Assembly (NCBI GenBank): GCA_041562555.1
Contig: JBFEXS010000021.1
Location: 1-24,970, forward strand
Source: Sulfurimonadaceae bacterium
GTDB lineage: Bacteria > Campylobacterota > Campylobacteria > Campylobacterales > Sulfurimonadaceae
DNA: 24,970 nt
Reading direction: 5' to 3'
Position numbers: made by a program. Positions 12,001 through 21,000 of this stretch are shown piece by piece. Position 1 is the first letter of the stretch. Each line of letters begins with the position of its first letter.

Positions 12001-15000
12001 CTGTCACAGATACAATATTGATATATCTATTCGCTCTCATATCTTCTCCTTATCTAAGCTTACTCTATGCCCAAGACGGCATATAGACCCTCTTGCTCAA
12101 ATTTTCGTGCCAACAGATTGCGGGCATCCAGTTTTGCCTTTTCATAATCATATCGTGACTTGCCACTTATGGTGATATTGTTCGATGCGATCCCCTTATC
12201 AGCCTGCTTACTTGTCAATAGTAGATTTGCTTTTGCGATCTTAAAACCATAGACTTCATCCGTTTGAAAAGAGCCGCTGAGATATACATAGGTATTGGCA
12301 CCTTTTGCACTGACTTCTATGCCCTCTTTGTTCAAGGCTTCTTTTACCGTATCCACAAAGACCTGCATCGATACATCTGAACTTACAGCGATCTTGACGC
12401 GATGCTGTGCACCTTTTTCAGCCTCTGCGACCTCTCTTGACTGCTCTAAGTAAGGATCAATGTCAAAATTTTTGTTGATCGTCTGTGCCAGGAGTGCCAG
12501 AGATTTCAGCGTATGTTGCTTTTGTGCTCTTTGCTTATAAAGGGAGACCTGTTTGATGATCGGAGCCTTTTTGATTTGAAGCTTTTCTCCTTCCAATTCC
12601 TTGGAAAAGCGTTCGAGTTTTAACTTCTGATCCTGGAAAAGCCGTTCCCTTGAGACCTCGATCAACAGAATGATCTTTTCACCCATCTGTTGATTGTTGA
12701 TGATCCTATACTCACTGAACTCCATCTCTTTTGCCTGGGCTTTGATACTGCTCACTGCCGAAGTATAGCTACTGCTTCCACCGTCATATTTTGTACTGGA
12801 TTCTTGCTTTTTAAACTCCGAACTGACTGTCAGAGAAAGGGACTCTGAGATAAAGCTTAGTGCCGCTGCCTTCGCCTGATTGATGTCACTACCTTCTCCT
12901 ACACCGTATAAAGACGCTGTAGTGTTAGATGGCGGGTTTAGGTACCAAGAAGGGTAAGAGAGCAGTTCAACCTTAGGTTGTTCCCCGCCGCATCCTAATA
13001 CAAACAATAGTACAACTGCAGATAATAAATATCTCATGATATCTCCTTGGTATTCCCGTAATTATCTAAGACCTTTAAAAGTATCACAAACAAACTGAGG
13101 CAAAGAAATCATATCCGTCAAATCACTCTAAATTCATCGTATTTTTCTTCCTTGTATCTACTCGTAACATCCGCAGACAGCTTAGAACTTCCAGCCAAAG
13201 TAGACAATCAAAAAACCTACATTCTCGATCTTTCCATGTGTAAATGAGGGAACATAGGCCGTATTGACACTAAAGTCCTTATAATAAAAAGAGCTCAATG
13301 GCGCCACTCCCCCTAACAGATCATACGCTGCATCTTCGGGCAATACATCTGTTTTATAATTGTCTTTTTTGACCATGACAAAGGCAGCGACACCAATTGA
13401 TACGGAACTGTTTTCACTGAGTTTAAAACGGATATTGGGAGAGGCTGAGATGGTATATTGCCATTCATCCATAGAGTCCTTCAAGGCGGTGAAGTTTGAG
13501 CCGAAGTAAAGTTCATCATACTCCCTAAAGCTCGTGAACTCATACCCTATACCGTAATTGACCTCATTATACGTATCACCGTTGTTTCGGTGTGATTTTT
13601 CATGCTTTGTAAATCCCGATACAAGGAGACGATGCTCATTCGCATTAAGTATGGTAACAAGAAGAAATAAAAATAAAACCTGTTTCATATTATTCTTTTT
13701 TATTACTATAGTAACACTAAAAAAGAGCAAGATTGTTTATGAAAAAAATTAAAATAAAGATAGGACTATGTTTTAAGATTGGACTCTTCCAAATAGATGG
13801 AAAAGCCCTGAACGAGAAGACTCAGTTCATCTGACTGAGATAGGCTTTGTACTTTAGATCCTGTAACTTCTGTGATTTTTGTTCAACTTCTTTTGCCATG
13901 TTTTCTTTATACGCACTGATCTTTGCACGTAGTTCATTATCACTGGCACCAATGATCTGAGCGGCCAGAATACCCGCATTTTTTGCCCCATTGACTGCCA
14001 CCGTTGCCACAGGAACACCTCCTGGCATCTGTACGATAGAGAGCAGTGAGTCCATTCCCTCAAGGGATTTTCCCTTCACCGGTACACCGATCACCGGAAG
14101 AGCTGTTTCTGAAGCAACCATTCCCGGAAGGTGAGCCGCACCACCTGCACCGGCGATAATCACCTTTAGACCCCTATCGGCCGCACTGGTGGCATACTCT
14201 ACCAGTTTACCCGGAGTTCTATGCGCCGATACGATATCCACTTCATAAGCAATACCGAACTCTTCACATATATCTGCCGCAGCACTCATCACCGGCAGAT
14301 CCGAATCGCTTCCCATAATAATCCCAACTACTGCTTTGCTCATATCTTTTTGCTTCCTTTGACTTTTAAAATATTTTTCGCCCTCATCGCTTTTTCCAGT
14401 GCCTTATCAATATCATCATCCAAAACAGTGATATGTCCCATCTTCCGAAAAGGCTTGGTAAAACTTTTACCATAAAAATGAAAAGAGAGCTCAGGGATCT
14501 CGAGGGCCTCATGAATCCCGTCAATAAAAGGCTCGCCCTCATATCCCTCTTCTCCCAGGACATTGACCATCACAGCCGGAGAGATCAGTTTTGTCGAACC
14601 AAGAGGAAGATTTGTCACTGCACGGATGATCTGCTCAAACTGTGAAGTCGCACAGGCTTCAACGGTATAGTGCCCGGAGTTATGTGGTCTGGGAGCAATC
14701 TCATTGACCAGAATATCACCGCTCTTTGTCAAAAAGAGCTCCACCCCGAAAATACCTACACCATCAAGTGCTTTGATTGACTTTTCTGAGATCTCTATAG
14801 CACGCTCTTCGATCTCCTTGGATATTTTTGCAGGGGCCATGACACTGTCACAGATATTGACGCGCTCGTCAAACAGCATCTCCACAACCGGATAGCATTT
14901 GATCTCGCCTTCCATATTTCTGGCAACGATAATCGCAAGTTCTTTGTCAATGTCTACCAACTCTTCAATAAAGGACTCTGTCTTTAGAGCATTCGGGATA

Positions 15001-18000: not shown

Positions 18001-21000
18001 ATCAGTTTTCCCATCATCGAGTCGTAACTTGAAGGGATCTCATAACCTTCATACATACACGAATCAATACGTACTCCCGGTCCACCAGGAGTAAGATAGT
18101 TTTTAATCGTACCGCCTGAAGGCATAAAGTTGTTCTGAGGGTCTTCGGTGTTGAGTCTAAACTCGATCGCATACCCACGGAACTTGATCTCTTCTTGCAA
18201 GAACTGCAACCTGTCTCCATCGGCGATCTCGATCATGCGCTGGATAATGTCTACCCCCGAGATCACCTCGGTGACCGGATGTTCCACCTGTACGCGCGTA
18301 TTCATCTCAATGAAGTAGATATTGTCATCCTCATCCAGCAAGAACTCGACCGTACCCACACTCTCGTAACCGAGCCTGAACATCGCCTTTGTCGATACGC
18401 GATAAAGCTCTTTACGCGTCTGCTCGTTCAAACGCGGTGACGGTGCGATCTCAATCACTTTTTGATGACGTCTTTGAATAGAACAATCCCGTTCACCAAG
18501 ATGTACGACATTCCCATAGCTATCCGCAACGATCTGCACCTCGATATGACGCGGGTTCTCAACATATTTTTCAATGAAGACATCCCCTTTGCCGAAATAT
18601 TTGACTGCCTCATTTGTCGCAGAGTCAAACATACTTGAGAACTCTTTGGCTTTTTTGACGATACGCATCCCCCGTCCGCCGCCGCCAAAAGCCGCCTTGA
18701 TGATAACCGGAAACCCGATCTCATTAGCGATCATCTCTCCCTCGGTCTTGTCCGTAATCGGTGTATCGGTTCCTTCCAACACAGGAACCCCGATCTCTTT
18801 CATCGCGACCTTGGATGCCATCTTGTCACCGAAAAGCTCGATATGCTCCGCCTTGGGACCGATAAAGATGATACCGTTATCATGACAAGCACGTGCGAAC
18901 TCTGCACTCTCTGACAAGAAACCATATCCAGGATGGATTGCATCACATCCTGCTTTTTTTGCAATGGAGAGTATCGGTTCATAATCCAAATAAGCCTGCA
19001 CCGGATTTCCCATAATCGGATAACACTCATCGGCCTTTTTGACCCAGACACCGTCCACATCAACTTCAGAAAACACAACAACGCTTTTGATCTCAAGCTC
19101 TTTACATGCTCGAATAATACGTAAGGCGATTTCACCTCTATTGGCGATCAGTACTTTTGAGATTTTGTTCATCATTTGCTCCTAAAAATTTTAAACAGGA
19201 GAATTCTAGTCTCTTTTAAAAAATAACTCTTCACCGCCTTTGATCTAAATATTATCTATTATTGTCATCTTATTTGACTTTTCATGCTAAAAATAATTTC
19301 TTTTTTTGGTATACTTAAGATTATGAAGCGACAGACACTCAATAAAAAGACCAAAATCTCGAACGATATACTCTTTTATATCTACACCCATATCGAAGTG
19401 GATATCAATATGGATGAACTTGCGCAAAGCTTTAATATCAGTAAGTTTTACATGCACAAGATCTTTAAAGAGGTCTTTGGCAGGAATATCTACGAGAGTA
19501 TCAAGTCGATACGACTTCAAAAGGCATCTACACTTTTATTGACCAATAAATATTCCACCATCACGGAGATCGCTTCCTCCTGCGGGTACAGTTCCCAGAC
19601 ATCCTTTATTCGCGTCTTTAAGGAACGTTTTCTCATGACCCCTACCGCCTGGCGTAAAGGAGGATACAAGACCTATTCGCAAACCATTATCGAAGAGTCT
19701 CCTAAAACCAAAGTCTCCAATGCTACCTTTGACACCCTCGAGCCTACCATCGTCAAGATGCCCCAGATGGAAGCATACTACATCCGGCACAAAGGGTATA
19801 ACGATCAGGTCAAGCAGACCTGGCAAAAGATCCAGACCTGGACCTATACCAATCATATCGAGAACTATAAGCATATTGCCCTCTTTCATGACAATCCGAC
19901 TATCACGCATCTGGATGAGTGTCAATATGTGGCCTGTATACAGGTCGATAATGACGATGATATTTCTGAGAATGAGCGTTTACCAAAGTTTAAAATTTCC
20001 GGGGGGACCTTTGCCAAGTTTGATCTGCAAGGGCATGATGGGGATTTTCTGCGTTTTATGCACTGGCTCTATAACGAATGGCTGCCGGAGAGTGAATATG
20101 AGACGACAACCAAGCCACCTTATGCCATCTATAAAAAGAACAAGTATCTTTCAGACGACAAGACATTTGATCTTAGTTTTTATCTCTCAATCAAGTTCTA
20201 GATCATACCTTGCGTTCAAGGGCAAAAGCCCTTCTTGAGGATCAGCGTTTTCTGCCTCTGTTAAACTCATCATCATCCGCAGCATCTTTACATCCTGGAT
20301 CTGCAAGATCGACGAGTCCATCACCATCATTATCCACACCGTCTGAACAGGCTGTCAGCGTTGGTGCGATTTCATTAAACTCATCATTATCATCGGCACT
20401 GCTGCAACCCGGATCGAGCATATCGATCAGACCGTCATTATCATTATCCTGTCCATCGGCGCATGCAGCGACCGGTGGGGTACTCCCGCCGATGACATCG
20501 ACGCTCAAAGAGGTTGCCGCTATCTGTGAGGTTTTCATCGTACTTGCGTCATACATTCCCTTGAATGAACTCGCCTCATCGGAGGCATCCGTAAACAGGT
20601 CTTGTGCGAATGGATACGAAAGTGTCTGATACAGAAGTTCTACATCAACCGTGTAGGTTCCTGTCTCTAATCCGCTTACACGGTAAGTGATCCTATCACC
20701 TCCACCCACAAAATTTATATCCGAATCGGCTGATCCAGATACTTTGACATCATTGGGTGCACTCGCTTTGTCAAATCCTGTCGGCAAGATACGGTTGTCT
20801 TTTTTATACTCCATGGCACGTAGAAGGGTATAAGTCACTTCCCCAAGGTTATTTCCCATGACAGTTTCATAGATCTGTACCTGATCCTGTGAGGTGATCA
20901 GGTCATAATGGGGTTCAAATACACCAGGGTCCACATCCGAATCTGCTCCGACAATACTTCCGTCGGCATTGACACGACCTGATTCAAAAACGATATTACC

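Follow-up and report, generated by a model that had tools for sequence, protein, structure and literature searches.

The window analysed here, a stretch of 24,970 nucleotides from a Sulfurimonadaceae genome (88.9% complete, 4.3% contamination), carries six open reading frames on its minus strand, located from the ORFs and a reading of the sequence and grouped in three tight gene pairs. The first pair consists of a biotin carboxylase (BC) of 484 aa (17721..19175, where 19175 and 19172 both offer an ATG in frame) and the orphan g815 of 215 aa (17072..17719), whose start lies 1 nt beyond the stop codon of BC. Beyond a spacer of 112 nt (16960..17071) lie sbtA (15979..16959), encoding an SbtA-family permease of 326 aa, and, 4 nt after its stop, sbtB (15630..15974), encoding a PII-like protein in the SbtB position, of 114 aa counted from ATG. 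A second spacer of 138 nt (15492..15629) leads to purK (14340..15491; N5-CAIR synthetase, 383 aa), which overlaps by 4 nt with purE (13822..14343; class I N5-CAIR mutase, 173 aa). On the plus strand, divergent from BC, lies a gene for an AraC-family regulator with a GyrI-like effector domain (19284..20201; Pfam HTH_18, 1.6e-20; GyrI-like, 6.5e-24); neither a LysR regulator nor a carbonic anhydrase gene is found within the six-gene string. Coordinates and spacings thus agree with a preliminary description of this DNA, which had reported six co-directional genes with gaps ranging from an overlap to 138 nt, and its gene identities are upheld by Pfam and NCBIfam matches.

The purine pair scores well over the family cut-offs, with the purK product reaching 435.6 bits against NF004679 (cut-off 326) and 419.4 against TIGR01161 (cut-off 318.4), and the purE product 225 bits against TIGR01162 (cut-off 149.6). 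This purE is the second copy in the genome, the other being on contig C102, and its product is 45-48% identical to the PurE type common in Campylobacterales. PurE was present in all 50 Campylobacterales genomes that made up a smaller set; in an even sample of the order (150 genomes at least 90% complete, representing 25 families and 67 genera), the PurK_C domain was found in two genomes, the same two in which PurK passed the TIGR01161 cut-off. Nearly all of the order thus has PurE without PurK, so that N5-CAIR must form there from CO2 without an enzyme. Matches to the PurK model under its cut-off look like PurT, and the ORF of this kind in the present genome passes both PurT models (554.1, cut-off 339; 523.9, cut-off 502.15). 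In the accessible text of PMC10880623, PurK versus PurE alone is a marker of low- versus high-CO2 adaptation; compared with its published use in rTCA Campylobacterota, PurK is restricted here to those two genomes of the order sample. The Sbt_1 family was detected in the same two, each of which has the four genes side by side. Among 41 relatives, this genome included, SbtA occurs in 10, PurK in 11 and both in 9, and in the SbtA-only relative (G005) the contig stops 27 bases past sbtA. The SbtA- and PurK-positive genomes are mostly close kin belonging to one genus, with only two independent genomes outside it.

The full six-gene order is present, divergent AraC-type gene included, in six other genomes (L003, L005, L007, L010, L040 and L068), which places the string above chance; in L006/L073, L013 and L074 the order is broken off by contig ends. 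Parts of the string also occur separately. Two genomes from other Campylobacterales families, G038 and G026, carry the sbtAB-purKE block without BC or g815, sbtB and purK being 9 and 26 nt apart; L019 has BC-g815-purKE without sbtAB, G012 has PurK-PurE without an adjacent transporter, and in L012 (BC-g815-SulP-purK) a SulP permease occupies the place of sbtAB. The BC/g815 pair adjoins the block only in this genus. Given the arrangements in G026, G038 and L019, the locus comprises two separable units, BC/g815 and sbtAB-purKE, and sbtA-sbtB-purK-purE is the conserved core; the previously noted tie between SbtAB and PurK-PurE is a strong one, as the block extends to two other families and the same two of the 150 sampled genomes share SbtA and PurK. 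PurK is 86-92% identical among records named Sulfurimonadaceae, Sulfuricurvum, Sulfurovum and Halarcobacter, and g815 about 50-60% identical between groups of this kind, values which suggest lateral spread within the phylum.

The two spacers bear on how these genes may be transcribed. That between g815 and sbtA holds a -10-like TAACAT (16995-16990) and a weak hairpin (16999-16983), with nothing unusual in its fold (z -0.86), and similar TAAnAT/TAATAT boxes are found in relatives with long spacers at this place; in four others (L007, L013, L040 and L068) the spacer is only 11-24 nt. These short gaps, like the common direction of the six genes and the recurrence of their full order in six other genomes, favour the earlier reading of the locus as one six-gene operon, in which SbtAB feeds both PycA (anaplerosis) and PurK (purines) in a non-autotroph. 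The spacer between sbtB and purK, however, contains a -10-like TAAAAT (15524-15519), approximately 27-31 nt ahead of the purK start, which is kept in 8/8 aligned relatives (alignment A5) and points to a promoter belonging to purK-purE. Together with the lengths of both spacers in the window and the separation of the units in G026, G038, G012 and L019, this makes the single operon unlikely in our assessment; purK-purE probably have their own promoter, and the locus probably comprises at least two transcription units. A generic promoter scan gave no excess of hits (12 found versus 12.8 expected from shuffles), and the sbtB/purK spacer showed neither an unusual fold (z -1.46) nor an Rfam match at E≤1. 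The AraC-type gene is divergent from BC in relatives as well (78-94% identity), and in L016, where BC does not intervene, from g815 itself; the AraC/GyrI protein is a candidate regulator of the BC/g815 pair.

All three biotin-carboxylase domains and a C-terminal extension are present in BC, whose best NCBIfam match is the pyruvate carboxylase model PRK12999 (653.6 bits, covering the N-terminal 480 positions of the model). Assignment as the AccC of fatty-acid synthesis was rejected, since the score against TIGR00514 (606.5) lies below the cut-off of 626.5 and the true AccC (PRK08462, 831; cut-off 740) adjoins AccB on contig C46, in agreement with the earlier mention of another biotin carboxylase beside AccB. 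The best solved chains were 7KCT (538 bits), the small subunit of a 2-oxoglutarate carboxylase, the Aquifex pyruvate carboxylase 1ULZ (523.5) and the biotin carboxylase 3OUU (451). Matches to 7KCT, 7KBL and 7KC7 at about 538 bits, spanning residues 5-472, would suit a BC acting as a CfiB-like small subunit of 2-oxoglutarate carboxylase and not of pyruvate carboxylase; this strikes us as highly improbable, considering the nearly equal score of 1ULZ, the best NCBIfam model, and the precedent of unlinked PycA and PycB genes in C. jejuni (Cj1037c and Cj0933c, in the available text of PMC4178425). Furthermore, the genome offers one large-subunit candidate only, located with OadB: this OadA-like gene on contig C40, previously described as PycB/OadA-like and now found to be the only PYC_OADA gene, is followed directly by OadB, scores 302.9 against the oadA cut-off of 756.5 and 277.9 against the pycB cut-off of 402, and may have its sole role in a Na+ pump. 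The name PycA given to BC earlier is a type call: the assignment to the PycA/CfiB type stands, whereas the specific identity as PycA is opposed by the CfiB-like best solved match and by the position of the sole PycB-like gene ahead of OadB. BC resembles PycA/PycB of C. jejuni and CfiAB as a free-standing biotin carboxylase, about 480 aa long and extended at the C-terminus, and its partner candidate is unlinked, as described for the former in PMC4178425. It differs from both in that this candidate precedes OadB and falls far under the family cut-offs, and in the translational coupling of BC to an orphan gene. We know of no third subunit in PycA/PycB or CfiAB enzymes.

This orphan, g815, which had been described as lacking a Pfam family, matches none even at E 0.1, nor any NCBIfam family at E 0.01. 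It has 290 homologues; a search of 1.84 billion sequences gave 97 representatives at E≤0.001, and every named member of the family belongs to Campylobacterota. The protein is all-helical, with a conserved polybasic C-terminal tail; its AF2 model (pLDDT 78.5, pTM 0.79) gave no Foldseek match at E≤0.001 and no informative fold match (best VIA Z 6.6). The family-wide invariants are K27, L32, P107, P131 and Y202, with no conserved catalytic-looking constellation among them. Neighbours could be scored at 55 of 58 loci: directly upstream lie BC (14), PurE (13), SulP (5), NhaA (2), an ion channel (1), signalling genes (12) or others (8), and the downstream genes include SbtA (7), NhaA (3), NhaP/Kef-type (2), SulP, PurK and BC (1 each). 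In a tree of these 55 loci plus the g815 of the window (56 rows), BC, PurE, SulP, NhaA or the ion channel stands directly upstream in 36 of the 44 rows of the main clade (BC in 15, including the window), signalling contexts form a separate clade except for row L041, and neighbour labels change 15 times versus 34 in shuffles; one whole clade is located in chemotaxis and c-di-GMP operons. These neighbourhoods in relatives support the tie of g815 to bicarbonate-type genes put forward in the preliminary description. The protein is probably a non-enzymatic accessory, for instance an adaptor or regulator, possibly active at the membrane by way of its polybasic tail in the handling of inorganic carbon and Na+.

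The permease belongs to Pfam Sbt_1 (E 1.6e-120), the same family as the SbtA of the cyanobacterial SbtA/SbtB pair (Synechocystis slr1512/slr1513; 7CYE, 7EGK), and it aligns to Synechocystis SbtA 7CYE in two stretches (E 1.8e-30). Four bicarbonate-contact residues (S114, Y140, S324 and S327) originate from a docking model, according to the available text of PMC8352866; in the alignment the F-G motif, the Na+-site Ser and two of these contacts are matched (Ser at S114 and S324), whereas Y140 is replaced by Met and S327 by Ala. The protein is also shorter than Synechocystis SbtA (326 versus 374 aa) and lacks the long cytoplasmic loop. We infer from the family that it is a Na+/bicarbonate symporter. 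The sbtB product matches Pfam P-II (E 3e-10, 40.8 bits; cut-off 25), its best solved chain being the PII-like 5D4N (E 6e-5), with weak matches to the SbtB chains 6N4A and 6MM2 (E 0.013); as in the cyanobacterial pair, the PII-like gene follows sbtA closely. Unlike in that pair, sbtAB are joined here to purK-purE and not to carboxysome or RuBisCO genes.

Searches for ATP-citrate lyase (ACL) found it neither in this genome (89% complete), as reported earlier, nor in five further SbtA-bearing genomes of the genus (6/8 in all, 76-91% complete), and RuBisCO was not found in this genome either. These absences agree with the non-autotrophic part of the single-operon reading, but the block is also carried by the ACL-positive genomes G038, G007 and G011. 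This genome also encodes SulP, DabA (690.7 bits) and an alpha-carbonic anhydrase whose start resembles a signal peptide, so that the earlier statement that the locus is not for autotrophy is too strong on both counts. An island serving as an autotrophic CO2-concentrating toolkit (either rTCA, its ACL having escaped assembly, or the reverse oxidative TCA cycle), with the purine and anaplerotic genes as fellow travellers, would accommodate those three genes, the ACL in all 8 other family genera searched, the isocitrate dehydrogenase directly upstream of sbtA in G038, and the co-location of inorganic-carbon transporters and carboxylases published for rTCA Campylobacterota (available text of PMC13147460). 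It is nevertheless distinctly improbable: in addition to the ACL-negative genomes of the genus, no ACL match was obtained in G012 or in the block-carrying G026, both 99% complete, and SbtAB is invariably partnered by PurK-PurE and not by CO2-fixing oxidoreductases. For the phylum, SbtA-type transporters, carbonic anhydrases and their co-location with carboxylases have been described (Scott et al., 2024, PMC10880623; 2026, PMC13147460); the available parts of both texts handle SbtA and PurK separately and mention neither an sbtAB-purKE string nor g815.

Bicarbonate supply in non-autotrophs, presented earlier as a new role of SbtAB, is already established for carbonic anhydrase and MpsAB, which serve PurK and pyruvate carboxylase, according to the available text of bioRxiv 10.64898/2026.09.08.750065. 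The logic is the same as with carbonic anhydrase or MpsAB/DabAB in S. aureus and B. subtilis, where the escape of CO2 leaves PurK, pyruvate carboxylase and acetyl-CoA carboxylase dependent on a supply (same source and scope). The present locus differs from MpsAB/DabAB in its non-homologous transporter, SbtA, and in the physical joining of this transporter to the consuming enzymes, in a genome which also has a DabA gene elsewhere.

Starting from the gene identities, synteny and co-occurrence observed, and with the substrate, the direction of supply, the BC partner, the role of g815 and the transcripts deduced from these, we consider it fairly probable that the locus is an inorganic-carbon island of two separable units, an accessory low-CO2 purine module and a BC/g815 unit. 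The first unit, sbtA-sbtB-purK-purE, would be an accessory module moving among environmental Campylobacterota: SbtA would import bicarbonate with Na+, gated by the PII-like SbtB (roles taken from the cyanobacterial pair), PurK would carboxylate AIR using ATP and bicarbonate, and the module's own class I PurE would complete the step, allowing purine synthesis to run at scarce CO2 in autotrophs and non-autotrophs alike. In the second unit, formed by the divergent AraC/GyrI regulator, the PycA/CfiB-type BC and the orphan g815, BC would most likely load the biotin of the OadA-like alpha subunit, the only carboxyltransferase/carrier protein of the genome, and both would make up an ATP-driven pyruvate carboxylase. 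One transcript would cover BC-g815, either alone or together with sbtAB, with possible read-through into purK-purE. Since the first unit lies directly behind the second in this genus, the importer comes to stand between two bicarbonate-consuming ATP-grasp enzymes. A marine sulfur bacterium would thus have a bicarbonate importer joined to the step of purine synthesis that consumes bicarbonate, and, beside its second carboxylase, an orphan protein that in relatives recurs near genes for inorganic carbon and sodium.

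The six genes of the string, all on the minus strand, lie where the preliminary description placed them, with open reading frame coordinates and sequence in agreement; their contig is one of 137 in a 2.10 Mb genome estimated at 88.9% completeness and 4.3% contamination. They comprise a biotin carboxylase gene (BC; 17721-19175, 484 aa, three BC domains), the gene for the orphan protein g815 (17072-17719, 215 aa), sbtA (15979-16959, 326 aa, Sbt_1 at 1.6e-120), sbtB (15630-15974, 114 aa, P-II at 3e-10), purK (14340-15491, 383 aa) and purE (13822-14343, 173 aa). Divergent from BC lies a regulator of the AraC/GyrI type on the plus strand (19284-20201). 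The family identities of SbtA, the PII-like protein, PurK, PurE and the biotin carboxylase, as first described, are firm by Pfam and NCBIfam, and g815, described as lacking a Pfam family, was likewise without a match in NCBIfam. Elsewhere in the window, a guanidine-I riboswitch (RF00442; 24833-24933, minus strand; 89 bits against a gathering score of 63) was detected directly upstream of a 417-aa ORF (23572-24825, minus strand) whose only match is a weak Porin_4; a porin-like gene under a guanidine riboswitch seems an unusual pairing. In the region 883-9487 (plus strand), the gene for a TonB-dependent receptor precedes a set of genes for the salvage and uptake of cobalamin (CobQ-like, CobU, CobS, a histidine phosphatase, a periplasmic binding protein and a FecCD permease); a scan of the window gave no cobalamin riboswitch at the gathering score of Rfam.

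SbtA matches PF05982 over its full length (402.5 bits, model positions 1-307 of 308). In Synechocystis SbtA, the available text of PMC8352866 places the bicarbonate contacts at S114, Y140, S324 and S327, and the Na+ site at F110-G111-A112, A320 and S322. By alignment, S114 and S324 correspond to Ser in the window protein, whereas Y140 is replaced by Met and S327 by Ala, so that two of the four bicarbonate contacts, which derive from a docking model, are absent; from the Na+ site, F110-G111 and S322 are kept. SbtB scores 40.8 bits against P-II (cut-off 25), and its gene starts 4 nt past the sbtA stop codon. Its best solved match is a PII-like chain that is not an SbtB (5D4N, E 6e-5), the similarity to solved SbtB chains being weak (6N4A and 6MM2, E 0.013; slr1513 chains, E 0.3-0.4); a PII-like sbtB is retained downstream of sbtA in all relatives bearing the sbtA-sbtB-purK-purE block. 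PurK exceeds the NCBIfam equivalog cut-offs of NF004679 (435.6, cut-off 326) and TIGR01161 (419.4, cut-off 318.4), and PurE, whose gene overlaps purK by 4 nt, that of the class I model TIGR01162 (225, cut-off 149.6).

The distribution of the block speaks for a functional tie between the transporter and the purine enzymes. In an evenly drawn sample of 150 Campylobacterales genomes, at least 90% complete and covering 25 families and 67 genera, only 2 genomes yielded the C-terminal domain of PurK; the same 2 carry a PurK over the TIGR01161 cut-off, and the same 2, again, carry Sbt_1, while PurE was present in 50/50 genomes of the order. A further 110 genomes matched TIGR01161 at E<=1e-30, all below the model cut-off; because the one such ORF of the genome under study passes both PurT models, these matches are taken, by extrapolation from that ORF, to be PurT. 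Among the 41 genomes of the relative set, SbtA occurs in 10, PurK in 11 and both in 9, and these positives are kin rather than independent cases, mostly of one genus with two outside it. The single SbtA-only genome (G005) has a contig that stops 27 bases past sbtA; PurK without SbtA was found in G001 and G012, the latter carrying purK-purE behind an outer-membrane efflux gene. The complete six-gene string together with the AraC gene is present in 6 further genomes (L003, L005, L007, L010, L040 and L068). The four-gene block alone, without BC or g815, occurs in G026 and G038, from two other families of the order, with identities to the window proteins of 76% for SbtA, 48-57% for SbtB, 74-78% for PurK and 65-72% for PurE, sbtB-purK gaps of 26 nt and 9 nt, respectively, and different upstream genes (a GmrSD-type restriction gene in G026, isocitrate dehydrogenase in G038). 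That two genes, each of them scarce in this order, occur strictly together and side by side is difficult to account for without a function in common.

In one relative (L012), a SulP permease occupies the slot of sbtAB, giving the order BC-g815-SulP-purK, which further supports the bicarbonate reading. Together with the strict co-occurrence with PurK, this replacement points indirectly to SbtA as a putative bicarbonate transporter.

Named homologues of g815 and PurK, as well as the related loci, belong to Sulfurimonadaceae and other Campylobacterota. PurK is 86-92% identical among records named Sulfurimonadaceae, Sulfuricurvum, Sulfurovum and Halarcobacter, whereas g815 is much more diverged between such groups, a difference that would fit lateral spread of the block inside the phylum. 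No published description of the sbtAB-purKE string was found among the matches listed in the literature on SbtA, purK and bicarbonate transporters, and no literature was found for locus tag SMGD1_2128. The portions of the work of Scott and co-workers available for comparison (PMC10880623, PMC13147460) report SbtA in Campylobacterota using the reductive TCA cycle, treat PurK versus PurE alone as a sign of adaptation to low versus high CO2, and note transporters adjoining carboxylases; those same portions, with Supplementary Table S4 outside the comparison, do not mention the string.

The window PurE is 45-48% identical to the usual Campylobacterales PurE. Its alignment contains both SAHR and AAHLPG, which we take to be class I PurE motifs. 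The idea that the usual Campylobacterales enzyme is instead a CO2-using class II PurE was dropped because it also carries the class I motifs. In G026 and G038 the purK-linked type is the sole PurE, and the genome under study has a second PurE of the usual type on another contig (C102; L065:1492-1986, plus strand). The latter reads S-S-T-Y-R-S-P, with Tyr at a position that is His in 13 of the 15 readable same-genus copies (G009 also has Tyr), and that His is presumably the catalytic residue of class I PurE. The function of the C102 copy may have been lost or altered after the arrival of purK-purE, a base error in the metagenome-assembled genome being also possible.

The genomic background is that of a lineage probably without ATP-citrate lyase (ACL) yet rich in inorganic-carbon genes. 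In agreement with the preliminary description, a search of the 88.9%-complete assembly for the ACL-specific domain PF16114 gave no match. The domain was detected in 25/41 relatives, among them every one of the 8 other genera of the family but just 7/16 same-genus genomes. Within the genus, 8 genomes bear SbtA, this one included, of which 6 (G000, G003, G004, G005, G010 and G015; completeness 76-91%) lack an ACL match, and the two with a match (G007 and G011) are both 6% contaminated. A search of the 88.9%-complete genome for RuBisCO (PF00016), positive in 5/14 reference genomes used as a control, gave no match; the locus differs in this from a carboxysome-type CO2-concentrating mechanism, where RuBisCO would be expected together with the transporter. 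No beta-carbonic anhydrase was found in the genome, and an alpha-carbonic anhydrase with a signal-peptide-like N-terminus is encoded beside an OprD-type porin (C79; L063:1498-2232, minus strand), which would fit a periplasmic enzyme making bicarbonate for SbtA. A SulP permease and a DabA gene are also present.

The identity of BC was weighed between three types of biotin carboxylase. An assignment as AccC was rejected, given its score of 606.5 against TIGR00514, under the cut-off of 626.5, a best NCBIfam model that is pyruvate carboxylase, and the presence of a true AccC/AccB pair on contig C46. Its best solved relatives are the small subunit of 2-oxoglutarate carboxylase (7KCT, 538 bits) and the Aquifex pyruvate carboxylase (1ULZ, 523.5), and by this similarity BC is a PycA/CfiB-type enzyme. 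The earlier naming of the gene as PycA stands at the level of type, BC being a free-standing, non-AccC biotin carboxylase. In the part of PMC13147460 consulted, PycA is recognized by adjacency to the beta subunit, and the window contains no carboxyltransferase or carrier gene, leaving BC without such a neighbour; PycA and PycB are described as unlinked in Campylobacter jejuni in the available text of PMC4178425. The only PYC_OADA carboxyltransferase and biotin carrier gene of the genome is located at C40:8-1765, truncated at its 5' end by the contig start, and is followed after 3 nt by an OadB gene (OAD_beta, 507 bits), the pair spanning C40:8-3115; no second large-subunit gene, such as one of CfiA type, was detected in this genome at 88.9% completeness. 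The C40 protein, a divergent OadA-like alpha subunit, scores far under the oadA and pycB cut-offs. It may be the partner of BC, in which case it would have two roles, one in the Na+ pump and the other, jointly with BC, in a pyruvate carboxylase driven by ATP.

The family of g815, a single-copy gene in this genome, is small: 290 homologues were found in a search of 5.8 billion clusters, and 97 out of 1.84 billion representatives matched at E<=0.001. Every named member came from Campylobacterota. It was found in 9/150 genomes of the order, corresponding to 8/11 of one family and 1/11 of the family of the window. A Pfam search at E 0.1 was empty, and the 17 distant members gave only noise. The AF2 model is all-helical (pLDDT 78.5, pTM 0.79) and had no Foldseek match in the PDB at E<=0.001; a wider VIA-align comparison gave at best Z 6.6, to ferritin-like, TenA and haem-oxygenase-like helical bundles, below the chance level for helical proteins, and the best ESM Atlas score, 0.86, was also below the level that counts. 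Only K27, L32, P107, P131 and Y202 are invariant family-wide, and a polybasic C-terminal tail is kept throughout. PurK was not found in 4 of the 5 other g815-bearing genomes searched. Two enzymatic roles for g815, a carbonic-anhydrase-like activity and a substitution for PurK, were set aside, as the family does not conserve the two cysteines and shows no conserved set of residues that looks catalytic.

The neighbourhoods of g815 were scorable in 55/58 loci from genome contigs (L044 and L060 are truncated by contig ends and L059 is split). The gene immediately upstream was BC in 14/55, PurE in 13/55 (with a 4-nt overlap in 4), SulP/STAS in 5/55, NhaA in 2/55, an ion channel in 1/55, a chemotaxis or c-di-GMP signalling gene in 12/55 and another gene in 8/55; immediately downstream were, among others, SbtA (7/55), NhaA (3/55), an NhaP/Kef-type exchanger (2/55), and SulP, PurK and BC (1/55 each). 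In a tree of 56 rows (the 55 scored loci plus the window g815), the loci with signalling contexts, except for one row (L041), group in a clade of their own with good support, and in the other clade of 44 rows the upstream gene is BC, PurE, SulP, NhaA or an ion channel in 36 (BC in 15, including the window); 15 context changes were counted, compared with 34 in shuffles. An alpha-carbonic anhydrase is convergent to g815 in L030, and the surroundings in L021, L023 and L028 include genes of the CaMKII_AD/SnoaL type. In our reading, g815 has an accessory role in the handling of inorganic carbon and Na+, more likely as an adaptor or regulator than as an enzyme.

Two sets of loci deserve separate mention. 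In Aliarcobacter (L047, L050, L052, L053 and L056), sister-clade g815 proteins, 38-40% identical, are translationally coupled to methyl-accepting chemotaxis or GGDEF proteins, and the genes after g815 encode a short CheA-like kinase or response regulators. In Sulfurimonas (L009, L011, L014 and L018), purE and g815 overlap by 4 nt and precede NhaA (L009, L014 and L018) or an NhaP/Kef-type exchanger (L011), and PurK was not found in the L018 genome; textbook biochemistry gives no obvious reason why a purine gene should share a string with Na+/H+ antiporters.

Regarding expression, the gaps read from the sequence measure, in the order from BC to purK, 1, 112, 4 and 138 nt, and purK and purE overlap by 4 nt; the string therefore consists of three translationally tight pairs with two real spacers between them. 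A TAAAAT box precedes purK in 8/8 aligned relatives, including those with spacers of just 51-54 nt; its position in the window is 15524-15519, which is 27 nt upstream of the purK ATG. Relatives with a long g815-sbtA spacer have a TAAnAT/TAATAT box ahead of sbtA, whereas in four relatives the gap is 11-24 nt, leaving no room for a promoter. A generic scan was uninformative (12 promoter-like sites where 12.8 were expected, 7 terminator-like sites where 4.3 were), the RNA folds of both spacers were ordinary, and Rfam gave no match at E<=1 within 13600-19400. Our best guess is that BC-g815(-sbtAB) forms one unit and that purK-purE is transcribed from its own predicted promoter, with read-through possible. 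Of the original interpretation of a bicarbonate operon, the pairing of SbtAB with PurKE is supported, and one six-gene transcript is the less likely arrangement.

SbtAB, PurKE and two-subunit carboxylases are known parts, and what is new is this variant of their combination; the sbtAB-purKE cassette in an otherwise PurK-less order and the orphan g815 family are both worth a bench test. As a tentative proposal, which we hold to be rather doubtful as a whole, g815 could define a new component, restricted to Campylobacterota, in the handling of inorganic carbon and Na+, a small helical protein that with its polybasic tail would tether or switch bicarbonate-consuming enzymes (the PycA-type carboxylase, PurE/PurK) at transporters (SbtA, SulP, NhaA), the signalling sister clade pointing to a sensor module for bicarbonate, CO2 or pH, and sbtAB-purKE would be a mobile cassette freeing PurK-less Campylobacterota from their need for high CO2. 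In any case, g815 represents a concrete new protein family without a known domain or fold match, and the genes beside it belong for the most part to inorganic-carbon or Na+/H+ functions. If our reading of the block holds, SbtA and SbtB would constitute a private bicarbonate line for the sole bicarbonate-dependent step of purine synthesis, a use of SbtAB beyond photosynthesis and carboxysomes. The scarcity of PurK, set against the retention of PurE, would offer one possible, testable genetic reason for the CO2 dependence of Campylobacterales, a dependence that the sbtAB-purKE cassette would relieve.
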